From Candidatus Thorarchaeota archaeon (lineage in GTDB: Archaea > Asgardarchaeota > Thorarchaeia > Thorarchaeales > Thorarchaeaceae): DNA of 64,000 bases. The stretch is taken from positions 91,440 through 155,439 of the forward strand of contig JBHLRZ010000004.1 of assembly GCA_048882045.1 (NCBI GenBank), in the 5' to 3' direction. The notes under the pieces were generated by a model, which was not told the DNA's origin, did no database searches, and saw only the letters and a program-made list of their open reading frames with translations. Position numbers and translations under genes: made by a program. Below, piece after piece: positions 11,113 to 24,361 of the stretch; the stretch's first letter is position 1; every line of letters begins with the position of its first letter.

Positions 11113-11217
11113 ATGGTCAGTTATACTAATCTCAATCTTGAAGATGTCTATTCAATCAATCGAACCTCCTTAGACGCATTTTGGGCTTCTATGGACACAA
11201 GTGAACTGATGTGTTAA
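11113..11217 (+). CDS. Putative 34-aa micropeptide with PIP-box-like motif, below the ORF-track cutoff
   Basis: Reads MVSYTNLNLEDVYSINRTSLDAFWASMDTSELMC*. Its stop overlaps the GTG start of the RadA paralog by 7 nt. Confidence 0.4.
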   Translation: MVSYTNLNLEDVYSINRTSLDAFWASMDTSELMC

Positions 11218-11963
11218 TTCCAGGTTTTCAGACTGCAGACAAACTTCAAAGAACGATATGCAAGACAGGAACGCCAATCCTTGACGGTCTCCTTGGGGGT
11301 GGATATGAAACCGGTCTCACATATCTGTTCTATGGACACGAGTTGCTGCATAGTGTCATCCTTCGTTCTGCAGTCCAAGCTCAATTACCTGTGATGAAAG
11401 GTGGGTTCTCAAGTCCTTGTATCATGATTGACAGCTCGAACATGATTGATACAGTAAAACTGAGAGACATCTCATTCCAGCTCGGTCTTGAGCCTGAGAG
11501 TGTCATGGATGCAATCCACATATCTCGCGCTTTCAATGCTTCACAGACTTTCGACCTCGTCATCAACCATCTGGACGAGTTCATGGAAAGCGTTCCAGCA
11601 AAGATGCTGATTCTACCGGGACTTGTCGACCTCTTCAACAGTGAGGGTCTTGACAGTGAAGCGACACGTCAGATGGCTCATATGGCTGCGCGTGTAAATG
11701 CGTTCACTCTGAAACACAATATTGTGACGCTGATATCCACTCGAGAACCATTGGGTTATGGAAAACAACCATCAGTCGGAAAAGCGCTCACAAGCTCTAC
11801 TCAGGTTCATGTACTGGTGGATCAGACTCCGATGCGCAATCTGTATTCACTGACAAAGCATCCAAGTCTCTCGTCCCGAATAGAATCTGTTGCCCGTACC
11901 GGTTCCGTATTTGGCGTGACCCTCCCACTTGAATACTTCTTTGAAGATGAATCTACTACTTGA
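11211..11963 (+). CDS. RadA/RecA-superfamily paralog with degenerate Walker A (likely inactive ATPase)
   Basis: TGTPILDGLLGGG.ETG...LFYG and IHISRAFNASQ are RadA-like. No GKT follows the first strand, and there is no N-terminal HhH domain. Confidence 0.8.
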   Translation: MLIPGFQTADKLQRTICKTGTPILDGLLGGGYETGLTYLFYGHELLHSVILRSAVQAQLPVMKGGFSSPCIMIDSSNMIDTVKLRDISFQLGLEPESVMDAIHISRAFNASQTFDLVINHLDEFMESVPAKMLILPGLVDLFNSEGLDSEATRQMAHMAARVNAFTLKHNIVTLISTREPLGYGKQPSVGKALTSSTQVHVLVDQTPMRNLYSLTKHPSLSSRIESVARTGSVFGVTLPLEYFFEDESTT

Positions 11964-13420: not shown

Positions 13421-13471
13421 CCGTAAAGGTTACTTACAGTCAGGTATGTGCGTCCAGGAAGGCTGGAGCAG

Positions 13472-15454
13472 ATGAGTGATTTCAAACTAGAGGCACCATT
13501 CAAACCCACAGGTGATCAACCACAGGCGATAGAGAAACTAGTGGAAGGTCTTGAGAGTGAACTCCAGCATCAAACACTTCTTGGTGTTACAGGCTCTGGT
13601 AAGACTTTTACAATGGCAAACGTCATTGAGGCTTACAATAAACCTACACTTGTCATCTCACATAACAAGACATTGGCTGCGCAGCTCGCATCTGAATACA
13701 AGCAATTCTTCCCTGATGCAGGAGTCGAATACTTTGTTTCATACTACGACTACTATCAGCCAGAAGCCTATGTTCCCAGTAAGGACATGTACATCGAGAA
13801 GGAAACAGACATCAACCAGGAGATTGAGAGACTTCGACATTCTGCAACTCATTCTTTGAGATCCCGGAGTGATGTCATTGTAGTAGCATCTGTTTCCTGT
13901 ATATACGGTGTAGGTGATCCGAGTGAGTATGACTACTTCAGGATGTACATTGAACGGGGAGGGCAAATTGACCGACGTGAAATCTTGGAACGACTCGTCG
14001 CCATGCAATACGAGCGAAATGACATGGAGATCAAGCCTGGTGTCTTCCGGGTGAGGGGAGATGTCATAGATGTCTATCCCGCTGCTTCAGAGAACAGCTA
14101 TCGAATTGAGCTCGACGGTGACAAAGTGTACCGGCTCACTATGCTGGAAGGTCTTACCTCAAAGAAGCTGTATCAACCAGACTGGATTGAATTGTATCCA
14201 GCAAAACATCACATAGCCCGTCATGAAACCGTTATCGACGCACTGGAACCGATAGAGCAAGAGATGCTTGAGAGGGTTGAGTGGTTCAAGAAGCAAGGGA
14301 AGATGGTGGAAGCAGATCGACTGAAGCGAAGAACTCTGTATGATATTGAGATGCTTCGGGAGATTGGAATGTGTTCTGGCATAGAGAATTACTCTCGGTT
14401 CATTGATGGTCGAAGTGTAGGTGAGAAGCCATACACTCTACTCGACTACTTCCCGAAAGATTTCCTCATGATTATCGATGAGTCTCACATGACCATTCCC
14501 CAGGTTCGAGGGATGTACAACGGGGACCTTGCGCGAAAACAGAATTTGGTAGACTATGGATTTCGACTCCCCTCAGCGATTGACAATCGTCCATTGAAGT
14601 TTCCAGAGTTCGAGAAATACATGAAACATGTCATCTTCACAAGTGCAACTCCGGGACCATACGAGAAGAAGGTAAGCAAACAGATTGTCGAACAGCTACT
14701 GAGACCCACTGGTCTCTTGGATCCTGACATAACTATCAAACCTGTGATCGGTCAGGTGGACCATCTCCTAGGTGAGATACAGACCACCGTGGGAAAGGGT
14801 GATAGAGTCCTCGTGACTACCCTCACAAAGAAGACTGCTGAAATGTTGAGTGAGTATCTTATTGAGGCAGGAGTGAAGTCTAGATATCTGCATTCAGACA
14901 TCGGTACAGTGGAGCGTATCGAAATCATCCGTCAGCTACGTCAGGCGAAGTTTGATGTCCTTGTTGGTATCAACCTTCTTAGAGAGGGGCTGGACCTCCC
15001 AGAGGTCGGACTAGTTGCTATCCTCGATGCAGACAAGGAGGGCTTCCTGAGGACAGATTGGGCACTCATCCAGACCATGGGTCGGGCAGCACGAAACGCG
15101 AATGGCCGAGTCATTCTATATGGTGACCACACGTCGAAGGCTATGCAGACTGCAATAGATGAGGTCAACCGACGCAGGTCATATCAAGAGAAGTACAATA
15201 AGGAGCATGGAATCACACCTGCGACCATTGTTAAGGATATTCAGGACATTGCCCAAGGCATCACAGTGCGCCAAGAAAGTGCTCAGACAAAGCTCGAGGA
15301 TTTCGATCCTATCGAGATGGATGACCTAGCTGATTACATCATTGACCTTGAGGAAGAGATGAAGGAAGCAGCAAGGAACCTTGAGTTTGAGAAGGCTGCA
15401 AGACTACGTGACAAGATTGCATCATTACGAAAGAGGGTAGAGGGTATCAGATAG
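13472..15454 (+). CDS. uvrB: Excinuclease ABC subunit B
   Basis: PTGDQPQAI, GVTGSGKT, YFVSYYDYYQPEAY beta-hairpin, DESH, GRAARN and C-terminal UVR domain. ATG 13472 is preceded by GGAG. Confidence 0.98.
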   Translation: MSDFKLEAPFKPTGDQPQAIEKLVEGLESELQHQTLLGVTGSGKTFTMANVIEAYNKPTLVISHNKTLAAQLASEYKQFFPDAGVEYFVSYYDYYQPEAYVPSKDMYIEKETDINQEIERLRHSATHSLRSRSDVIVVASVSCIYGVGDPSEYDYFRMYIERGGQIDRREILERLVAMQYERNDMEIKPGVFRVRGDVIDVYPAASENSYRIELDGDKVYRLTMLEGLTSKKLYQPDWIELYPAKHHIARHETVIDALEPIEQEMLERVEWFKKQGKMVEADRLKRRTLYDIEMLREIGMCSGIENYSRFIDGRSVGEKPYTLLDYFPKDFLMIIDESHMTIPQVRGMYNGDLARKQNLVDYGFRLPSAIDNRPLKFPEFEKYMKHVIFTSATPGPYEKKVSKQIVEQLLRPTGLLDPDITIKPVIGQVDHLLGEIQTTVGKGDRVLVTTLTKKTAEMLSEYLIEAGVKSRYLHSDIGTVERIEIIRQLRQAKFDVLVGINLLREGLDLPEVGLVAILDADKEGFLRTDWALIQTMGRAARNANGRVILYGDHTSKAMQTAIDEVNRRRSYQEKYNKEHGITPATIVKDIQDIAQGITVRQESAQTKLEDFDPIEMDDLADYIIDLEEEMKEAARNLEFEKAARLRDKIASLRKRVEGIR

Positions 15455-18342
15455 TGAAGTCATTGACCAACGACAGAGGCAGCGGTTCTCCAGATGTTCC
15501 ATTGGAGGGTCCTCAGTCCATACTAGTCGTTGGTGCTGCGGAAAACAATCTTCGCCACATTTCATGTGAGATTCCGAAGAACAAGTTCACAGTAGTTACC
15601 GGGGTTTCAGGTAGTGGAAAGAGCAGCCTGGTGTTCGACACGATCTTCGCTGAGGGTCAGAGACGCTTCGTTGAGTCTCTCTCTGCCTATGCACGTCAGT
15701 TTCTTGGCATGCTAGAGAAACCTAAGGTCGACTTCATGTCAGGACTCTCACCATCGATCTCGATTGACCAGAAGAGTGTTGGACGCAACCCTCGCTCTAC
15801 CGTTGGTACAATCACAGAAATCTACGACTATCTACGTCTGCTCTACGCAAGAGTAGGTACTCCTCACTGCCCGAAGTGTGGTAAGAAGATCGAACCACAG
15901 ACCTCGCAACAGATGGTCGATCGCATCCTCCGGTTTCCTGAAGGGACGAAGATAGTGATACTCGCTCCAATCGTCCGTGGTCGGAAGGGAGAGTATCGAA
16001 GGGAATTCAGAGACCTGATCAAGAAGGGATTCATTCGAGCTAGAGTTGATGGGGAGCTCGTGGAACTCGAGGACGGAATGTCTCTTGACAGATACTTTGA
16101 GCACACCATAGAGGTAGTGGTAGACAGACTTCGAGTGAAGAAGGATGACCGCAGCAGGATATCGGAAGCTGTCGAGACCTCTCTCAACATGGCAGATGGT
16201 GTTGTCTCTGTCGAGAGGGATGGCGGCACTCTTACGTTATCGGAGCAGTTCGCCTGTGTGGACTGTGGAATCAGTCTTCCGGAGATGGAACCTCGTATCT
16301 TCTCTTGGAACACACCACAGGGAGCATGCACTAACTGTACAGGTTTGGGAGTGGTCCGGGAGTTTGATCCCGACCTGTTCATCAAGAATCCTAATCTTTC
16401 ATTGAATGAGGGTGCGATGATTCCTGACAACTGGGTACTTCGTAGGAAATTGTTTCACAAGGTGGCTGAGAAGTACGGTTTCACCCTCGATATGCCCTGG
16501 AAAGACTTCACCGAGGAGCAGAAGAATATTGTATTCTACGGGACTACTGAGAAGTATGATGTCACATGGGAAGGTGGCAACGAAGAGTATGAGGTAAAGT
16601 ACTCAGGTCATTACAAGAGAGCATTCGAGGGATTCGTCATCCGTGCTCAGAGGACCTACAAGAATACAAAGTCCGAGTATCGTCGTCGACAGATAGAACA
16701 GCTCATGTCCACACAGAAATGTCCAGTCTGTAAGGGTCATCGTCTGCGGCCAGAGTCTCAGGCTATAACGATAGGAAATCGCTCGATCTCTGAGATCGGA
16801 TCTATGTCAATCAAAGATCTTGGTCAGTTCATAGAAACCGCAAAGATTCCAAAGCGGTTCAGACCGGTCTCCGAGCCGATAATCAAAGAGATTCTCGGTC
16901 GCATAGGTTTTCTCCAGGATGTCGGGCTCGAGTACCTGACACTGGACAGGCCCGCTCCGTCTCTTGCAGGCGGCGAAGCCCAGAGGATTCGTCTCGCCAG
17001 TCAGATCGGTTCGAACCTTGTCGGTGTGACCTACGTCTGTGATGAGCCTAGTATCGGACTTCATGCCCGTGACAACCAGCGACTCCTGAACTCGTTGATG
17101 AATCTAAGAGACCTCGGCAACACAGTATTGGTCGTGGAGCATGACGAAGAGACGATCAGGAGTGCAGACTATGTCATCGACCTTGGCGTCGGTGCTGGTG
17201 CTGAGGGCGGGGATGTTGTCGTTGCTGGTGAACTTGATGATGTGTTGAATTCAGAAACGTCAATCACTGCAAAGTACCTCCGAGGTGATGAGAAGATACC
17301 TGTACCTACGGAGCGCCGAAAGTCGAATGGCAGGTTCATAGAGGTACGTGGTTGTCGCCACAACAATCTGAAGGATCTCAACGTGAGGATACCTCTGGGG
17401 CTGTTTGTGGCAGTAACAGGAGTGTCCGGTAGTGGGAAGAGCTCTCTGGTCGTCGAGACACTGCAACGGGAACTAGCCCGCAGATTCCATCATGCTGAAG
17501 CAAAGCCCGGCGAGCATGATGAAATTGTTGGAATCGAACAACTGGACAAAGTCATTGTGATTGACCAGAGTCCCATCGGGAGAACCCCGAGAAGTAATCC
17601 AGCTACATATGTCGGACTCTGGACTCCACTCAGAGAACTCTATGCGAGTCTTCCTGAATCGAAGATTCGTGGATACAAGCCCGGTCGTTTCTCGTTCAAT
17701 GTCAAGAGTGGTAGTTGCCCAAAGTGTAAGGGGGCTGGTGTAGAGATCATCGAGATGCAGTTCCTCCCTCCTGTTCAGGTAACATGTAGCGAGTGTAAGG
17801 GTCGCCGTTACAACAGGGAAACCCTCCAGGTCCGATTCAAGGGGAAGAATATCTCCGATGTTCTGGATATGAGGATAGACGAGGCCCGTGAGTTTTTCGA
17901 GGGAGTGCCTTCGATCCATCGGCGTCTGTCAACTCTCTGCGACGTGGGCATGGGATATGTGAAGATGGGACAGCCCGCTACAACGTTGAGTGGCGGAGAA
18001 GCTCAGAGGATCAAACTGAGTAAGTTCCTGTCAAGACCTGCTACCGGACAGACACTGATTTTATTAGATGAGCCCACGACAGGTCTCCACTTTGCCGACA
18101 TCAAGAAGCTCCTTGAGGTTCTCCACCGCCTGGTTGACCTCGGAAACAGTGTGCTTGTTATAGAACATCAACTGGATGTTGTGAAGACTGCTGACCATGT
18201 CATCGACTTGGGACCTGAGGGTGGGGATGAGGGTGGTTACATTGTTGCTCAGGGCACTCCGGAAGAGATAGTCGCAGACAAAGCCTCATACACAGGCAAG
18301 TACATGTCAGAACTTCTGCAAGAGGGAGGGGCTGAGATGTGA
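15454..18342 (+). CDS. uvrA: Excinuclease ABC subunit A, copy 1
   Basis: Two ABC ATPase modules (GVSGSGKS twice; LAGGE and LSGGE), zinc modules, UvrB-binding domain and QSPIGRTPRSNPATY. Confidence 0.97.
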   Translation: MKSLTNDRGSGSPDVPLEGPQSILVVGAAENNLRHISCEIPKNKFTVVTGVSGSGKSSLVFDTIFAEGQRRFVESLSAYARQFLGMLEKPKVDFMSGLSPSISIDQKSVGRNPRSTVGTITEIYDYLRLLYARVGTPHCPKCGKKIEPQTSQQMVDRILRFPEGTKIVILAPIVRGRKGEYRREFRDLIKKGFIRARVDGELVELEDGMSLDRYFEHTIEVVVDRLRVKKDDRSRISEAVETSLNMADGVVSVERDGGTLTLSEQFACVDCGISLPEMEPRIFSWNTPQGACTNCTGLGVVREFDPDLFIKNPNLSLNEGAMIPDNWVLRRKLFHKVAEKYGFTLDMPWKDFTEEQKNIVFYGTTEKYDVTWEGGNEEYEVKYSGHYKRAFEGFVIRAQRTYKNTKSEYRRRQIEQLMSTQKCPVCKGHRLRPESQAITIGNRSISEIGSMSIKDLGQFIETAKIPKRFRPVSEPIIKEILGRIGFLQDVGLEYLTLDRPAPSLAGGEAQRIRLASQIGSNLVGVTYVCDEPSIGLHARDNQRLLNSLMNLRDLGNTVLVVEHDEETIRSADYVIDLGVGAGAEGGDVVVAGELDDVLNSETSITAKYLRGDEKIPVPTERRKSNGRFIEVRGCRHNNLKDLNVRIPLGLFVAVTGVSGSGKSSLVVETLQRELARRFHHAEAKPGEHDEIVGIEQLDKVIVIDQSPIGRTPRSNPATYVGLWTPLRELYASLPESKIRGYKPGRFSFNVKSGSCPKCKGAGVEIIEMQFLPPVQVTCSECKGRRYNRETLQVRFKGKNISDVLDMRIDEAREFFEGVPSIHRRLSTLCDVGMGYVKMGQPATTLSGGEAQRIKLSKFLSRPATGQTLILLDEPTTGLHFADIKKLLEVLHRLVDLGNSVLVIEHQLDVVKTADHVIDLGPEGGDEGGYIVAQGTPEEIVADKASYTGKYMSELLQEGGAEM

Positions 18343-21197
18343 CCGGCTACATCAAGGTGCGAAAGGCTGAGGAACATAACCTCAAGTCAATCGATGTAGA
18401 CATTCCTCGAGATCGGCTTGTGGTTGTTACAGGACCCAGTGGTTCTGGAAAATCTACGCTTGTGTTTGATACCGTGTTCGCAGAGGGGCAGCGACGCTAT
18501 GTGGAGAGCTTGTCTTCCTATGCACGAAGGTTTCTTGGACGCCTCGACAAACCAAAGGTGGACAAGATCACTGGTCTTCCTCCAGCCATATCGATCGAAC
18601 AGAAAGGACGCACAAAGAACCCACGTAGCACAGTAGCAACGAGCACTGAGATCCAGGACTACCTTCGACTGCTATACGCCAATATTGGCATCGCACATTG
18701 TGTCCAGTGTAAGAAACCTATGGAACAGCTCACTGCTGAGTCAGCAGCCAGACTTCTTCTTGATGAGAATGGAGGACAAAGGATTCACATACTCGCCCCT
18801 GTCGTGAGGGGTGATACCGGGAATCACGAGGAGGAATTGGACGGTCTCTTCAAGAATGGATTCGCCAGAGTCCGAGTAGACAGTGAGATCCATGACATCG
18901 ACGGTCTCCACCTGGATGCTCGGAAGAAACACGATATCGAAGTTGTCGTTGACAGGCTCGAACTCAGTCAGAAGAATAGAGAGCGACTCATCGGGTCCCT
19001 GGAGACCGCACTTGAAACTGGAGAGGGAGCAGCCATCGTCGCTCGGGAAGGTATGCCTGACTTGCTCTTTGCAGAATCACTGATGTGTCCGAAGTGTGGA
19101 ATTCAATATGATAAACTGGGACCGAAGGCCTTCTCACATAACAGACCAGATGGAGCATGTCCCACATGTAATGGTCTTGGAGTGACAATGGCTGTCGACC
19201 CAGACTTAGTGATACCTGACAAAGACATGACTGTTCGAGAGATCAGTAAGAGAGTCAACAGAGCGGAGAAACCATGGTTCTTGAAGCGGCTCCAGAAATT
19301 GGGTGAACAGAAAGGCTTTACATTGGACACAAAATACAGGGACTTCACAAAGGCTCAGGTAGATGTGTTCATGTGGGGGAAGCCGAATGTCATGCTTCAA
19401 TATGTGATGGAGGGCGATGAGTCATATTGGGAAATAGAACGAAAATGGATAGGGCTCATTCCGTGGTTGGAACGACTCTTTGAAAACTCAAAGAGCAGCG
19501 ACAAACAGTGGTATCAGTGGTGGGCACGGAGAATTGCAAACGAGTTCTCTCGAAAGAGTACCTGTGTGTCCTGCAATGGTCGTCGTCTGAAACCTGAGAG
19601 TCTTGCAGTCACTGTTGGGGGTCGCTCTATTGATACTATCACTTCCATGACCATCGAACAGGCTGTTGAGTTTTTCAACACCATCGAGCTCTCAGAACGA
19701 GACCTCAAGATAGCACAGCTTGTCCTCAAAGAGATAAAGGCTCGACTGAAATTCTTGATCTCTGTAGGCCTCGAGTATCTCAATCTGGACAGAGCTAGTA
19801 TGACTCTCTCAGGAGGAGAGAGTCAGAGAATCAGACTCGCAACGCAGATCGGTTCTGCACTGACTGGAGTCCTCTATTGTCTTGATGAACCATCAATTGG
19901 TCTCCATCCGCGAGACATCAGTCGCCTCATCGATACGTTCTATCACCTTCGATCACTCGGGAACACCGTGGTCGTAATCGAGCATGACAGAGACACCATC
20001 ACGGCTGCAGACCATCTCATCGACTTGGGGCCGCTGGCGGGTCGACATGGTGGAGAAGTGGTAGCAGAAGGGTCTCCTAGAGAAGTTCTGACACACCCAA
20101 AGTCTCTGACTGCCCAGTACTTGGCTGGAGAGAAACAGATTCCCATCCCCGAAGAACGGCGTAAAGGAAACGGTCACAACATCACTATTCACAACGCACG
20201 TACGAACAATCTGAAGGGCATCACAGTCAGGTTCCCATTGAACAAGATGATCTGTGTGTCTGGAGTTTCGGGTGCTGGGAAGAGCTCCCTGACGTATGAT
20301 ACACTCTACAAGGCACTTGCTCGGGACATCAATGGAGCAAGCACAAGACCTGGTCCTTATGATTCAATAGATGGGATTGAAAATCTCGATAGGCTGGTCT
20401 TGGTAGATCAGTCACCGATAGGCCGGACACCCAGAAGCAACCCAGCAACCTACACGAAGACCTTCGGAGAGATTCGTGAGCTCTTCGCAAAGATGCCTGA
20501 GGCGAAGGCTCGCGGATTCAGTCCTGGACGATTCAGTTTCAACACACGCGAGGGTCGATGCGAGAAGTGCAAAGGCAGTGGAGTGCTTCGAGTTGAGATG
20601 CACTTCATGTCGGATGTGTTCATGACCTGCGATGTGTGTCACGGAGAACGATTCGACCGAGAGACCCTCGAGGTAAGTTACAAGGGGAAGAACATCACCG
20701 AGATCCTCGCGATGACCATAGATGAAGCTCTTGAGTTCTTTGCTGACATCCCGAAGATTGCAGACAAGCTCACTACACTTGTCGACGTAGGATTGGGCTA
20801 CCTCCAGTTGGGTCAACCAGCCACCCAGCTCAGTGGTGGAGAAGCACAGAGGATGAAGCTCGCATCAGAGCTCTCTCGGAAGGCAACTGGGAAGACATTG
20901 TATCTCTTGGACGAACCCACAACTGGGCTGTCCGCCTCTGATGTCCATGTCCTGCTCAGAGTGATTAATCGGTTAGTGGATGCAGGGAACACAGCCATCA
21001 TTGTGGAACACAATCTTGAGGTCGTCAAGACAGCAGACCATGTCATCGACTTAGGTCCGGAAGGTGGAGATGCTGGTGGTGAGGTGATCGCCGAGGGCAC
21101 TCCCGAAGAGATCTGTGAAGTCTGGAAGTCGTATACAGGGAACCACTTGCGTGATGCCCTCTTCGGCCCCAACGTTCGGCGGGGTCAACTGAACTAA
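18339..21197 (+). CDS. uvrA: Excinuclease ABC subunit A, copy 2 (divergent, full length)
   Basis: GPSGSGKS and GVSGAGKS, LSGGE twice, zinc modules, retained UvrB-binding domain, and a GTGA overlap with copy 1. Confidence 0.97.
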   Translation: MTGYIKVRKAEEHNLKSIDVDIPRDRLVVVTGPSGSGKSTLVFDTVFAEGQRRYVESLSSYARRFLGRLDKPKVDKITGLPPAISIEQKGRTKNPRSTVATSTEIQDYLRLLYANIGIAHCVQCKKPMEQLTAESAARLLLDENGGQRIHILAPVVRGDTGNHEEELDGLFKNGFARVRVDSEIHDIDGLHLDARKKHDIEVVVDRLELSQKNRERLIGSLETALETGEGAAIVAREGMPDLLFAESLMCPKCGIQYDKLGPKAFSHNRPDGACPTCNGLGVTMAVDPDLVIPDKDMTVREISKRVNRAEKPWFLKRLQKLGEQKGFTLDTKYRDFTKAQVDVFMWGKPNVMLQYVMEGDESYWEIERKWIGLIPWLERLFENSKSSDKQWYQWWARRIANEFSRKSTCVSCNGRRLKPESLAVTVGGRSIDTITSMTIEQAVEFFNTIELSERDLKIAQLVLKEIKARLKFLISVGLEYLNLDRASMTLSGGESQRIRLATQIGSALTGVLYCLDEPSIGLHPRDISRLIDTFYHLRSLGNTVVVIEHDRDTITAADHLIDLGPLAGRHGGEVVAEGSPREVLTHPKSLTAQYLAGEKQIPIPEERRKGNGHNITIHNARTNNLKGITVRFPLNKMICVSGVSGAGKSSLTYDTLYKALARDINGASTRPGPYDSIDGIENLDRLVLVDQSPIGRTPRSNPATYTKTFGEIRELFAKMPEAKARGFSPGRFSFNTREGRCEKCKGSGVLRVEMHFMSDVFMTCDVCHGERFDRETLEVSYKGKNITEILAMTIDEALEFFADIPKIADKLTTLVDVGLGYLQLGQPATQLSGGEAQRMKLASELSRKATGKTLYLLDEPTTGLSASDVHVLLRVINRLVDAGNTAIIVEHNLEVVKTADHVIDLGPEGGDAGGEVIAEGTPEEICEVWKSYTGNHLRDALFGPNVRRGQLN

Positions 21198-21209
21198 TAC
21201 ATGATCGGC

Positions 21210-21650
21210 TTAGTAAAGCTGGATGAACGTATAGACAAAGACAATCAGGAATATTATGACCATAACGGAGATCATGGCTCCCAGAGTCCTTGAGTAGTTC
21301 TTCGGGTCGAGCTGCCCCTCTTGGTCCATTTTCTTTGCCATCGGGTACAGTTTCCAATAGAAGGACATGATTGACATCATCAGTGCAAAAAGGACCCAGA
21401 CCTGGACCTGTTCGTTCGCAAAGATGAGGATCACAGTCAACATGGCCAAAAAGATCAACTTTGTACCAGCAACCCAGTTCACCAGATAGTTTGTAAAATT
21501 GTGTATCTCTGTGTCTTGCTTGGACTTCTCCCAGGCTGTGAAGACTCCTACACTATTGAACATCTTAGAATCCTTTCTGAAGTAAAGTGCGAGAACGTTC
21601 GCGAATTCAAGGAACATGAATGCAATTATCACAATTACAAGTAGACTCAT
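21210..21650 (-). CDS. 4-TM membrane protein of unknown function
   Basis: 146-aa ORF with four hydrophobic segments. Confidence 0.75.
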   Translation of the reverse strand: MSLLVIVIIAFMFLEFANVLALYFRKDSKMFNSVGVFTAWEKSKQDTEIHNFTNYLVNWVAGTKLIFLAMLTVILIFANEQVQVWVLFALMMSIMSFYWKLYPMAKKMDQEGQLDPKNYSRTLGAMISVMVIIFLIVFVYTFIQLY

Positions 21651-21950
21651 AGTGAAGGACTCGAATATTGCTCGATATATTATAACTGGTCATCAATGGA
21701 AATCAATGATTTTTCAAAAACCGCGCGTTCTGCGTTCGATTTATCGAGACGCGTCTCGCATAATGAGACCTCGCAGAAAATCAACTGCCACAAAATGCTC
21801 GGAAACACTTCCGAAATGCATTTTTCAGCAATAGACAAGTGAGGACATCATACACATATGGTATATTAACCACTCGCGAGAGACTTTTTCCTGGTTGTCC
21901 ATGTTTGGACCACCGTTCGCAGACGGCCGCCGGGAGGTCGACGCACACAC

Positions 21951-22466
21951 ATGATACGCAGAGATGAGTCAAACGACTCAACGCCAACATCGGCAATGAC
22001 TACAAAGAACACCAGCACGATATACGAAACTGACCTCAGAAGAAGACTAGCTACTTTTCCAAGGGACGTCCTTGCATGGTTTGCACTAGGGAAATATCTC
22101 CGTTCCGTTGGTAGACTGCAAGAGGCTGAGGAGTCACTACGAAAGGCAACCTCCCTCAATCCAGGTCCACTACCATTCTGGGAAGAGCTTGCTTTGACTC
22201 TTGTTGACCTTGGTCGGATTGACGAGGCTTATGCAATCTGCGACCAGAATCTGAGGAAGAAAGACGATACAATAGTGAAAAGACTAGAGGAGCTCAGGAA
22301 GCTGGAGCGGTCAGCAGGTGCGGACTATCCTGAAGAGACCTCTCCCTGTGTTGCGTGTCCTGAATACACATACTATGGTTGCTCTAGGGGATGTGAATGT
22401 GATGCGATTGTCAGATGGCGCTCAGCCATCTCTAATACACGCCCAACTTCGACTCATAGAACCTGA
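21951..22466 (+). CDS. TPR protein with Cys-rich C-terminus (start may be ATG 21996)
   Basis: AWFALGKYL...EAEESLRKATSLNP TPR motif, then CVACPEYTYYGCSRGCEC. Confidence 0.75.
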   Translation: MIRRDESNDSTPTSAMTTKNTSTIYETDLRRRLATFPRDVLAWFALGKYLRSVGRLQEAEESLRKATSLNPGPLPFWEELALTLVDLGRIDEAYAICDQNLRKKDDTIVKRLEELRKLERSAGADYPEETSPCVACPEYTYYGCSRGCECDAIVRWRSAISNTRPTSTHRT

Positions 22467-22549: not shown

Positions 22550-24361
22550 ATGTCGGATCTCAGAGCTCTCGTCCAAGACTTACCCGATGCACCTGGCGTG
22601 TATCTATGGAAGGACGAGAAAGGGAAAATCCTCTACATTGGCAAGGCAAAGTATTTGCGTCGAAGAGTCGGGTCCTACCTCCGAAAGACTGGACTCTACC
22701 GCAGATTGGGAGAGATGATGTTTCACGCTCGAGATCTCGAAACAATTGTGACTAACACTGAGCGCGAAGCGCTCGTTTTGGAACAGACGCTCATAAAGAA
22801 ACATCAACCTAGATACAATATTGCCCTCAAGGATGATCGACGTCACGCATGGATTAGAGTGGACTTGAAGAAACGGATTCCAACATTTGAGATTACTCGC
22901 GAAGCTGAGAAAGATGGAGCAACCTACTATGGTCCATATGGCAGCACAAAGAGGCTCGAACGCCTCATGGACACTATAAGAAAATCCATTCCGGTTGCTA
23001 TGTGTAGGGATCCTGAAAAGGTGAAACGTGCTTGCATGGACTACCACCTTGACAGATGCACTGGACCCTGCGAGGACCACATTGATCTACCTGAGTATAG
23101 GGAACTAGTTGAACAGATGAGCTATTATCTCGAGGGACGCCCGGATGATCTACGGAGGTCTCTAAAGAAGCAAATGGAGAATGCATCAGCTGCAATGGAG
23201 TTTGAGAAAGCAGCAGAGATGCGTGACCGTCTTACAGACCTTGAGGTTTTGATGAGTCGCCAAAAAGTAGTGCGTTTCGAAGGTGCAAACAGTGATATTC
23301 TTGGAATCTCGCGAACAGAGCAAGCAGCTCTGATCAATATGTTGATTGTACGAAACGGACGATTGATTGGAGTTGACAACTTCTATTTTGAGATTGATTT
23401 GGACACACCAGACTCTGAAGTAATTGAGGCTTTCATAGAGCAGTTCTACTTCACGATTCCACGTCTTCCGGATCAGATAATCATTCCCACAAAAATCTCT
23501 CAGATGAAGAACCTCAGCACTTGGCTGAGTGATGTAAATAGCCATCCAGTGAAAATTATGCTCCCCGATGATGATAGAACTTCTGAACTCGTAGAGATGG
23601 CTAAGAAGAATGCTCATCGAGCTCTTCGAAAGATGTTGATTCTTGGACACAGTGACGAAGAGATTGTGCATCCTGGTGTAAAGCATTTGAAGGAGGCTTT
23701 GGGTCTTGCAGTTGTTCCAATGCGCATCGAAGGCTTTGATATCGCCAACATACAAGGCACAGACCCAACAGGCTCGTGTGTTGTCTTCAAGAATGGAGAA
23801 CCATACAGCAAGCGTTACCGAATGTTCAAGGTTCGGATCAAGCAGACTCCTGACGATTATGCTATGATGCACGAAGTCGTCTATCGGAGATATTACGGAG
23901 TACTTGAGCGGAAGGATGTACTTCCGGATCTCATCCTCATTGATGGCGGAAAGGGACAGCTCAATGTCGCGTTGGAAGCATTATCCGAATTGGGACTTGA
24001 CTATGTTCCAGTCGTAGCGGTCGCAAAGCGTGAAGAAATCCTGTATACACGAGATGCTCCTGAAGGTATTGTACTCGATCTTGGATCCCAGGGACTTCAC
24101 CTGATTCAGAACATCCGAGACGAAGCTCACAGGTTTGCACAACGGTATCACCATAAACTCAGAGAAAAGAGATTCACAGGTTCTATACTAGAAGAAGCCC
24201 CTGGCATCGGTCCAAAGAGGAGGTCAGCACTACTTCAAGCTCTGGGTAGTTACGACAATGTGAAGAATGCTTCAGTGGAAGAGCTTGCAGCAGTTGAAGG
24301 GATGTCAGAAAAGACTGCAATGGCTCTAAGAGAATGGCTGGACCGAGATGATGCTGATTGA
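22550..24361 (+). CDS. uvrC: Excinuclease ABC subunit C
   Basis: GVY...YIGKA GIY-YIG domain, Cys cluster, UVR domain, EGFDIA and IDGGKGQ RNase H-like domain, and HhH GIGPKR. Confidence 0.97.
   Translation: MSDLRALVQDLPDAPGVYLWKDEKGKILYIGKAKYLRRRVGSYLRKTGLYRRLGEMMFHARDLETIVTNTEREALVLEQTLIKKHQPRYNIALKDDRRHAWIRVDLKKRIPTFEITREAEKDGATYYGPYGSTKRLERLMDTIRKSIPVAMCRDPEKVKRACMDYHLDRCTGPCEDHIDLPEYRELVEQMSYYLEGRPDDLRRSLKKQMENASAAMEFEKAAEMRDRLTDLEVLMSRQKVVRFEGANSDILGISRTEQAALINMLIVRNGRLIGVDNFYFEIDLDTPDSEVIEAFIEQFYFTIPRLPDQIIIPTKISQMKNLSTWLSDVNSHPVKIMLPDDDRTSELVEMAKKNAHRALRKMLILGHSDEEIVHPGVKHLKEALGLAVVPMRIEGFDIANIQGTDPTGSCVVFKNGEPYSKRYRMFKVRIKQTPDDYAMMHEVVYRRYYGVLERKDVLPDLILIDGGKGQLNVALEALSELGLDYVPVVAVAKREEILYTRDAPEGIVLDLGSQGLHLIQNIRDEAHRFAQRYHHKLREKRFTGSILEEAPGIGPKRRSALLQALGSYDNVKNASVEELAAVEGMSEKTAMALREWLDRDDAD

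Follow-up and report, generated by a model that had tools for sequence, protein, structure and literature searches.

The window analysed here is a stretch of 64,000 nucleotides from a Thorarchaeota (Asgard) assembly, which has a size of 3.6 Mb and is 93% complete. Three consecutive genes on its forward strand, uvrB, uvrA1 and uvrA2, are followed after 1.35 kb by uvrC, a gene absent from the list given in the original prediction (Table 1). The uvrB gene is the only copy in the genome, and its reading frame is open already at a GTG codon at position 13448, while the canonical N-terminus begins from the ATG at 13472. The three genes had been predicted to be joined by overlapping stop and start codons, and both overlaps proved to be real when the coordinates were checked, with 1 nt common to uvrB and uvrA1, and 4 nt common to uvrA1 and uvrA2, where the TGA stop lies at 18340-18342 and the GTG start at 18339-18341. 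A purine-rich, Shine-Dalgarno-like stretch, GAGGGAGGGG, is located before the uvrA2 start, at 18322-18331.

Table 1. Positions of the uvr genes, their junctions and neighbouring features in the window, counted from its first nucleotide.
Feature	Position	Strand	Remarks
RadA/Rad51-like paralogue	11211..11963	+	250 aa; Pfam Rad51, 50 bits
uvrB	13472..15454	+	1009 bits with NCBIfam NF003673 (cut-off 743)
uvrB stop/uvrA1 start overlap	15452..15456	+	TAGTG; TAG 15452-15454, GTG 15454-15456, 1 nt in common
uvrA1	15454..18342	+	962 aa, complete class I UvrA
Shine-Dalgarno-like GAGGGAGGGG and uvrA1 stop/uvrA2 start overlap	18322..18342	+	ATGTGA
uvrA2	18339..21197	+	952 aa, complete class I UvrA
146-aa predicted membrane protein	21210..21650	-	Sub-threshold Pfam matches only; between uvrA2 and uvrC
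171-aa TPR protein	21951..22466	+	Pfam TPR families; just 5′ of uvrC
uvrC	22550..24361	+	603 aa; 547 bits with TIGR00194 (cut-off 285)

The G+C content over the uvr genes (window positions 14000-22000) is 0.49-0.51, compared to approximately 0.44 elsewhere in the window. The TPR protein encoded next to uvrC has a Cys-rich C-terminus. On the other side of the genes, about 1.5 kb 5′ of uvrB, a RadA/Rad51-like paralogue is found, with an opposite-strand gene of the histidine-phosphatase family located between the two.

The products of uvrA1 and uvrA2, hereafter A1 and A2, share 50% identity across 946 residues. Both were originally described as complete proteins that keep the ATPase modules, the zinc sites, and the UvrB-binding and insertion domains, a description upheld by profile searches and alignment alike. 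With the UvrA equivalog model of NCBIfam (NF001503/TIGR00630), A1 and A2 score 1389 and 1323 bits, respectively, against a cut-off of 1147. The Pfam model of the UvrB-binding domain (UvrA_inter, PF17760) is matched with 134 bits by A1 and 98 bits by A2, and the insertion domain (UvrA_DNA-bind, PF17755) is found in both. Residues of the Walker A and Walker B motifs, the Q-loop, the signature and the H-loop are invariant in both ATPase modules among 41 A1 and 38 A2 orthologues. All CxxC pairs of the three Cys4 zinc modules can be read in the two translations, C139 and C268 being invariant, and the best match among solved structures is a full-length UvrA, 9GXK, with 1186 bits over the full length. 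The model of fused UvrAs (NF001885, 1809 positions) gave 691 bits for A1 and 707 bits for A2 against its cut-off of 3054, each protein matching half of the model, and instead of the single polypeptide of a fused UvrA there are two ORFs in different frames that overlap by 4 nt. Class II UvrAs are recognized by the lack of the UvrB-binding domain and of the first zinc module, and A1 and A2 have both. By all criteria tested at the level of sequence, A1 and A2 are ordinary members of class I.

The arrangement found in the window extends to its relatives. Directly after uvrA1, uvrA2 is found in 41 out of 41 Thorarchaeota loci in which the 3′ end of uvrA1 lies on the contig, and the junction is formed by a 4-nt overlap in 37 loci, a 1-nt overlap in two and a 14-nt spacer in the remaining two. 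The junction before uvrA1 is similar, as in 30/37 Thorarchaeota loci the earliest start codon of its ORF overlaps the uvrB stop, by either 4 nt or 1 nt. Because this coupling is like the one between uvrA1 and uvrA2, it does not single out the A1-A2 pair and is rather a property of the whole operon. Among relatives, uvrC follows uvrA2 at distances between 7 nt and 5.3 kb. The genes uvrB, uvrA1 and uvrA2, with uvrC close by, are best read as the nucleotide-excision-repair (NER) operon of Thorarchaeia. Within a survey sample of 151 Asgard genomes, the adjacent pair was present in most of the 32 genomes (15 genera) sampled from the family of the window (f1). In a second family of the same order (f2), represented by one sampled genome (G025), the pair is also present, with A2 split across two contig ends, and most other Asgard families in the sample have one UvrA each. 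Assemblies labelled as Thorarchaeota account for almost all close relatives of A2 (64-92% identity), and a few more are filed under other Asgard names. Synteny across Asgard genomes had been suggested as a check on the original prediction, and the pair turned out not to be sporadic, as it is adjacent in all of these 41 loci and occurs in two families of the order.

In phylogenetic trees, A1 and A2 form separate clades (support 100 and 97-100) with a similar branching order. The f2 genome branches first in both of them, and the pair is therefore older than the split of the two families. With domain boundaries taken from the numbering of Geobacillus stearothermophilus UvrA, shifted by approximately 18 residues, identity within the A1 and A2 clades was 0.83 and 0.87 in the ATP-I domain, 0.75 and 0.71 in the UvrB-binding domain, 0.49 and 0.46 in the insertion domain, and 0.86 and 0.83 in the signature II domain, respectively. 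On this measure, both proteins are under similar purifying selection and evolve at similar rates in every domain. The retention of a redundant duplicate for dosage, which the presence of all canonical features in both A1 and A2 could bring to mind, is very hard to reconcile with the data. The 50% identity between the two is about the distance of each of them to other Asgard UvrAs (51-54%); furthermore, each has its own fixed substitutions and both were retained in parallel in two families, while redundant copies would not be expected to persist in such a manner.

The deep placement of A1 and A2 was not settled by FastTree, by quick and careful LG+G4 analyses, or by C20-PMSF. A2 is placed beside the C-halves of Asgard fused double UvrAs in both LG+G4 and C20-PMSF trees, where the split uniting them received a support of 97/99 in the careful LG+G4 analysis and 98 under the site-heterogeneous C20-PMSF, and A1 joins the fused N-halves weakly. 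The AU test, however, rejects neither the monophyly of A1 and A2 (26 lnL worse, p = 0.218) nor its alternative, and in a tree calculated after removal of the C-halves A2 floats in the backbone. The link between A2 and the fused forms may therefore result from long-branch attraction. Moreover, the fixed differences between A1 and A2, compared with the N- and C-halves of Asgard fused UvrAs, agree with each orientation in 5 columns and hold no shared-derived signal. Because of the AU test, the removal of the C-halves and this balance of 5 against 5 columns, the pair is not claimed to be a split form of the fusion. A search with A2 among representatives at 50% identity returned almost only double-length UvrAs, which rank first through two summed matches, and a separate search for homologous proteins listed Thorarchaeota orthologues of A2 alone.

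Several motifs in which A1 and A2 differ had been put forward as marks of their specialisation. All of these differences exist, and one of them, RKGE versus D-T-G-N, does affect an invariant residue, while the others represent normal or lineage-specific variation, so that as marks of specialisation the cited motifs are mostly ordinary UvrA variation. LAGGE, with Ala in signature I, is carried by 37 of the 41 A1 sequences and also by 5/33 single-copy UvrAs. At the GLS position following Walker B-II, His is replaced throughout A2 (35 Ser and 3 Ala out of 38), and Ser is found there in 7/33 single-copy UvrAs. As both variants occur in single-copy UvrAs, they were ruled out as signs of a degenerate ATP site. 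The Trp-rich stretch is a short insert directly before the second zinc module, and it was ruled out as a trait of the A2 clade, being carried by only a part of it.

A scan for asymmetries covered 284 columns in which 33 single-copy UvrAs show a conservation of at least 90%, and non-conservative departures of A1 or A2 were few among them. In the UvrB-binding domain, all 33 single-copy UvrAs and 41/41 A1 sequences (K178) have the Lys of RKGE, and none of the 38 A2 sequences has it (T160 in the window). In A1, on the other side, an invariant Glu of the helix that follows signature II has given way to Phe or Tyr (F858 in the window), a residue kept in 38/38 A2 sequences as Glu. At the position of the Gln that enters the DNA helix when UvrA is bound to ATP (Q65 of Ct-UvrA; PMC12796330), A2 has a fixed Arg (Arg64), while A1 retains the Gln; Arg is found at this wedge position in 1/33 homodimeric UvrAs, and one Arg together with one Gln in 8/27 fused forms. 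The contacts of the Ct-UvrA dimer include Y55-S82 and Y55-A84 (PMC12796330). Position 82, Ser in A1 and in 33/33 single-copy UvrAs, is Pro (Pro81) in A2; at positions 55 and 84, Phe and Ser are found in A1, and Tyr and Ala in A2. The Q65R and S82P replacements, the loss of the Lys and the Ser after Walker B-II in A2, as well as the loss of the Glu in A1, are common to families f1 and f2, and these changes are therefore ancestral to the pair.

Of the interface residues that PMC12796330 lists for Ct-UvrA, nearly all are found in A1 as well as in A2, and mixed A1-A2 dimers are for this reason structurally plausible. Differences between A1 and A2 were not enriched at the interface, with 1 out of approximately 11 invariant interface columns affected against a background of 3.6%. 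The interface differences would fit a co-adapted mixed interface, at a level statistically indistinguishable from this background.

Fused double UvrAs, which are highly diverse in public data and were also detected in the proteome of Planctomycetes (PMC8567305), offer a comparison for the residue losses and give a stronger signal than the interface. In the Asgard family f5 (e.g., L093 and L117-L120), a fused UvrA of about 1920 aa composed of two full-length units is the sole full-length UvrA, and the genomes have one uvrB, encoded elsewhere. The C-half of the f5 protein is strongly eroded in its UvrB-binding and signature II domains. When 213 columns without variation among single-copy UvrAs were ranked by how often exactly one half of a fused double UvrA retains the residue (27 proteins), the top three all fell within the UvrB-binding domain. 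Two belong to RKGE, its Gly (26/27) and its Lys (24/27), and the third is a His (24/27) two residues before the I-E-V-V-V-D-R strand. A2 of family f2 has lost all three residues (K, G and H), and A2 of family f1 only K178, while the Asgard fused C-half is eroded beyond A2 of f2. The proportion of invariant residues of the UvrB-binding domain that are kept is 0.91 in A1 and 0.78 in A2, compared to 0.91 in the N-half and 0.48 in the C-half of the f5 fused protein. As far as these residues tell, double UvrAs retain one canonical UvrB-binding domain while the other erodes, and A2 may represent the first step of the same erosion, in a form far milder than that of the fused C-halves.

Additional UvrA-like sequences were observed in the course of this comparison. 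The host genome holds a third full-length UvrA (G000:C5:71903-74725, minus strand; L003) of about 975 aa, with a score of 1148 bits and 41-43% identity to A1 and A2. This protein has a very long branch, keeps 61% of the invariant residues of the UvrB-binding domain, and is shared by several genomes from its genus. The same contig encodes a double UvrA-like protein of 1629 aa (G000:C5:58940-63814, minus strand; L004-L007), in which the first unit is devoid of the insertion-domain region and the second of the UvrB-binding domain; many of the representative matches are similar double UvrA-like proteins, with about 1600-1650 aa, and genomes of the same genus encode them as well. In G128:C4 (L116), an open frame of 1972 aa ends in a complete UvrA unit, which is preceded by approximately 840 further residues. 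Finally, Asgard UvrA matches with a single in-frame TGA are present in G153:C4:344153-349437 and G147:C257, where a sequencing error, a pseudogene or recoding are all possible.

UvrA dimers bind two UvrB molecules. According to the reading that we favour, at a probability of roughly 0.55, A1 and A2 form a heterodimer whose two UvrB-loading sides are not equivalent. A1 and A2 would be made together, presumably in a 1:1 ratio, and would assemble mostly into an A1-A2 heterodimer that scans DNA and loads the only UvrB encoded in the genome. [quoted passage not shown] The central wedge probing the DNA would carry one Gln, from A1, and one Arg, from A2. The significance for function that is given here to the missing Lys and Glu is an inference. 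The f5 genomes, in which a fused double UvrA as the only full-length UvrA is accompanied by one uvrB, provide a working precedent. In recent structures, even the UvrA homodimer loses its symmetry at a lesion, where one protomer serves "recognition" and the other "support" and an intermediate of the composition UvrA2-UvrB1 is described (PMC11985968), and a heterodimer could fix these two roles genetically. A stronger version, which we regard as doubtful, would make the A1-A2 pair an obligate, hard-wired asymmetric UvrA with one canonical UvrB-loading side and protomer roles fixed by the genes, intermediate between homodimeric and fused UvrAs. From the interpretation given in the original prediction, that of a heterodimeric damage sensor with specialised halves, what stands is that the pair is ancient, always co-retained and translationally coupled, that both proteins are complete, and that mixed dimers are plausible, while most of the motifs cited in its favour are ordinary.

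It is also quite possible, although we find it less likely, that A1-A1 and A2-A2 act as independent homodimers, co-transcribed and served by one UvrB, which handle different lesions or DNA contexts, with mixed dimers absent or incidental. Each of the proteins is complete, with intact motifs and UvrB-binding domains and all ATPase sites kept, and both are far less degenerate than the fused halves, so each could work as a homodimer. Divergence between A1 and A2 is greatest in the DNA-contacting insertion domain (25% identity), followed by the UvrB-binding domain (37%), and the Arg fixed at the DNA wedge in A2 points in the same direction, as do the further UvrA paralogues in the genome, which suggest a diversifying family. 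Nevertheless, co-expressed subunits with nearly identical interfaces would be expected to mix unless prevented from doing so. A dimer built only from A2 would be handicapped by the missing invariant residue of the UvrB-binding domain, or by three such residues in the case of f2. In addition, Arg contributed to the wedge by both protomers would be a rarity among homodimeric UvrAs, and the combination of one Arg and one Gln is encountered in some of the fused forms.

A further scenario would leave A1 as the UvrA of NER and have A2 drifting towards a role independent of UvrB, similar to that of class II proteins, such as protection against DNA-binding toxins, and riding along in the operon. A2 is indeed the more divergent of the two in the UvrB-binding and insertion domains, the Lys of its RKGE motif is gone, and class II UvrAs are known to act without other NER proteins (PMC9328131). 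However, class II proteins are devoid of the UvrB-binding domain and of the first zinc module (PMC9328131), whereas the UvrB-binding domain of A2 is complete and under purifying selection comparable to that of A1, the protein as a whole reaches 1323 bits as a class I UvrA, and its coupling in the operon is tight and conserved across the order. We consider such a drift quite improbable.

Canonical class I homodimers (E. coli; G. stearothermophilus, 2R6F/3UWX; Thermotoga maritima, 3PIH; Mycobacterium tuberculosis, 3ZQJ; the 9GXK series) have the same set of domains as A1 and A2, including the catalytic, zinc, UvrB-binding and DNA-binding elements, and the Thorarchaeia genes resemble the canonical system also in having uvrB in the operon and uvrC nearby. 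They differ from it by the presence of two diverged genes, each paralogue being without one or two residues invariant in single-copy UvrAs, and by the proposed dimer of unlike subunits. Heterodimeric ABC exporters are encoded by adjacent paralogous genes and have one degenerate ATP site. As coupled neighbouring paralogues of ABC ATPases, A1 and A2 resemble them by analogy only, because here all four ATP sites look canonical. Fused UvrAs (NF001885/PRK00635 of Chlamydiae; Planctomycetes, PMC8567305; f5) are like the pair composed of two unlike units, and the weakening of the UvrB-binding domain in their second unit may have a far milder counterpart in A2. They share with it the release of the invariant interface Ser, and in the trees their C-halves stand beside A2. 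The pair, however, consists of separate polypeptides, both of which are much less degenerate, and orthology of A1 with the N-half and of A2 with the C-half is supported neither by the AU test nor by the 5-versus-5 columns. Class II UvrAs (Deinococcus radiodurans UvrA2, DrrC, Ecm16) share with A2 the status of a second UvrA-family protein in the genome, while A2 possesses the two elements that they lack, UvrB-binding domain and first zinc module, and is encoded within the uvr operon; Ecm16 acts without the other NER proteins (PMC9328131). Our literature search found no paper on a coupled uvrA1-uvrA2 pair, and a 2026 review of Asgards mentions only the presence of UvrABC in these archaea. The fused form was already known. 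What sets the pair apart is the arrangement of two unlike, coupled subunits with complementary small losses, positioned between homodimeric and fused UvrAs.

UvrA is the textbook example of a symmetric homodimer in a repair reaction that is itself asymmetric, involving one damaged strand and finally one UvrB. Recent structural work still asks by what means the symmetry is lost (PMC11985968). If A1 and A2 act as independent homodimers, they are an ordinary pair of paralogues. If the heterodimer is true, it would represent a natural two-gene UvrA, in which the protomers can be mutated separately, so that functions required from both subunits could be told from those required from one. Such a pair would further record the transition from a homo- to a hetero-oligomer through duplication, a common route, in the archaeal lineage closest to eukaryotes.
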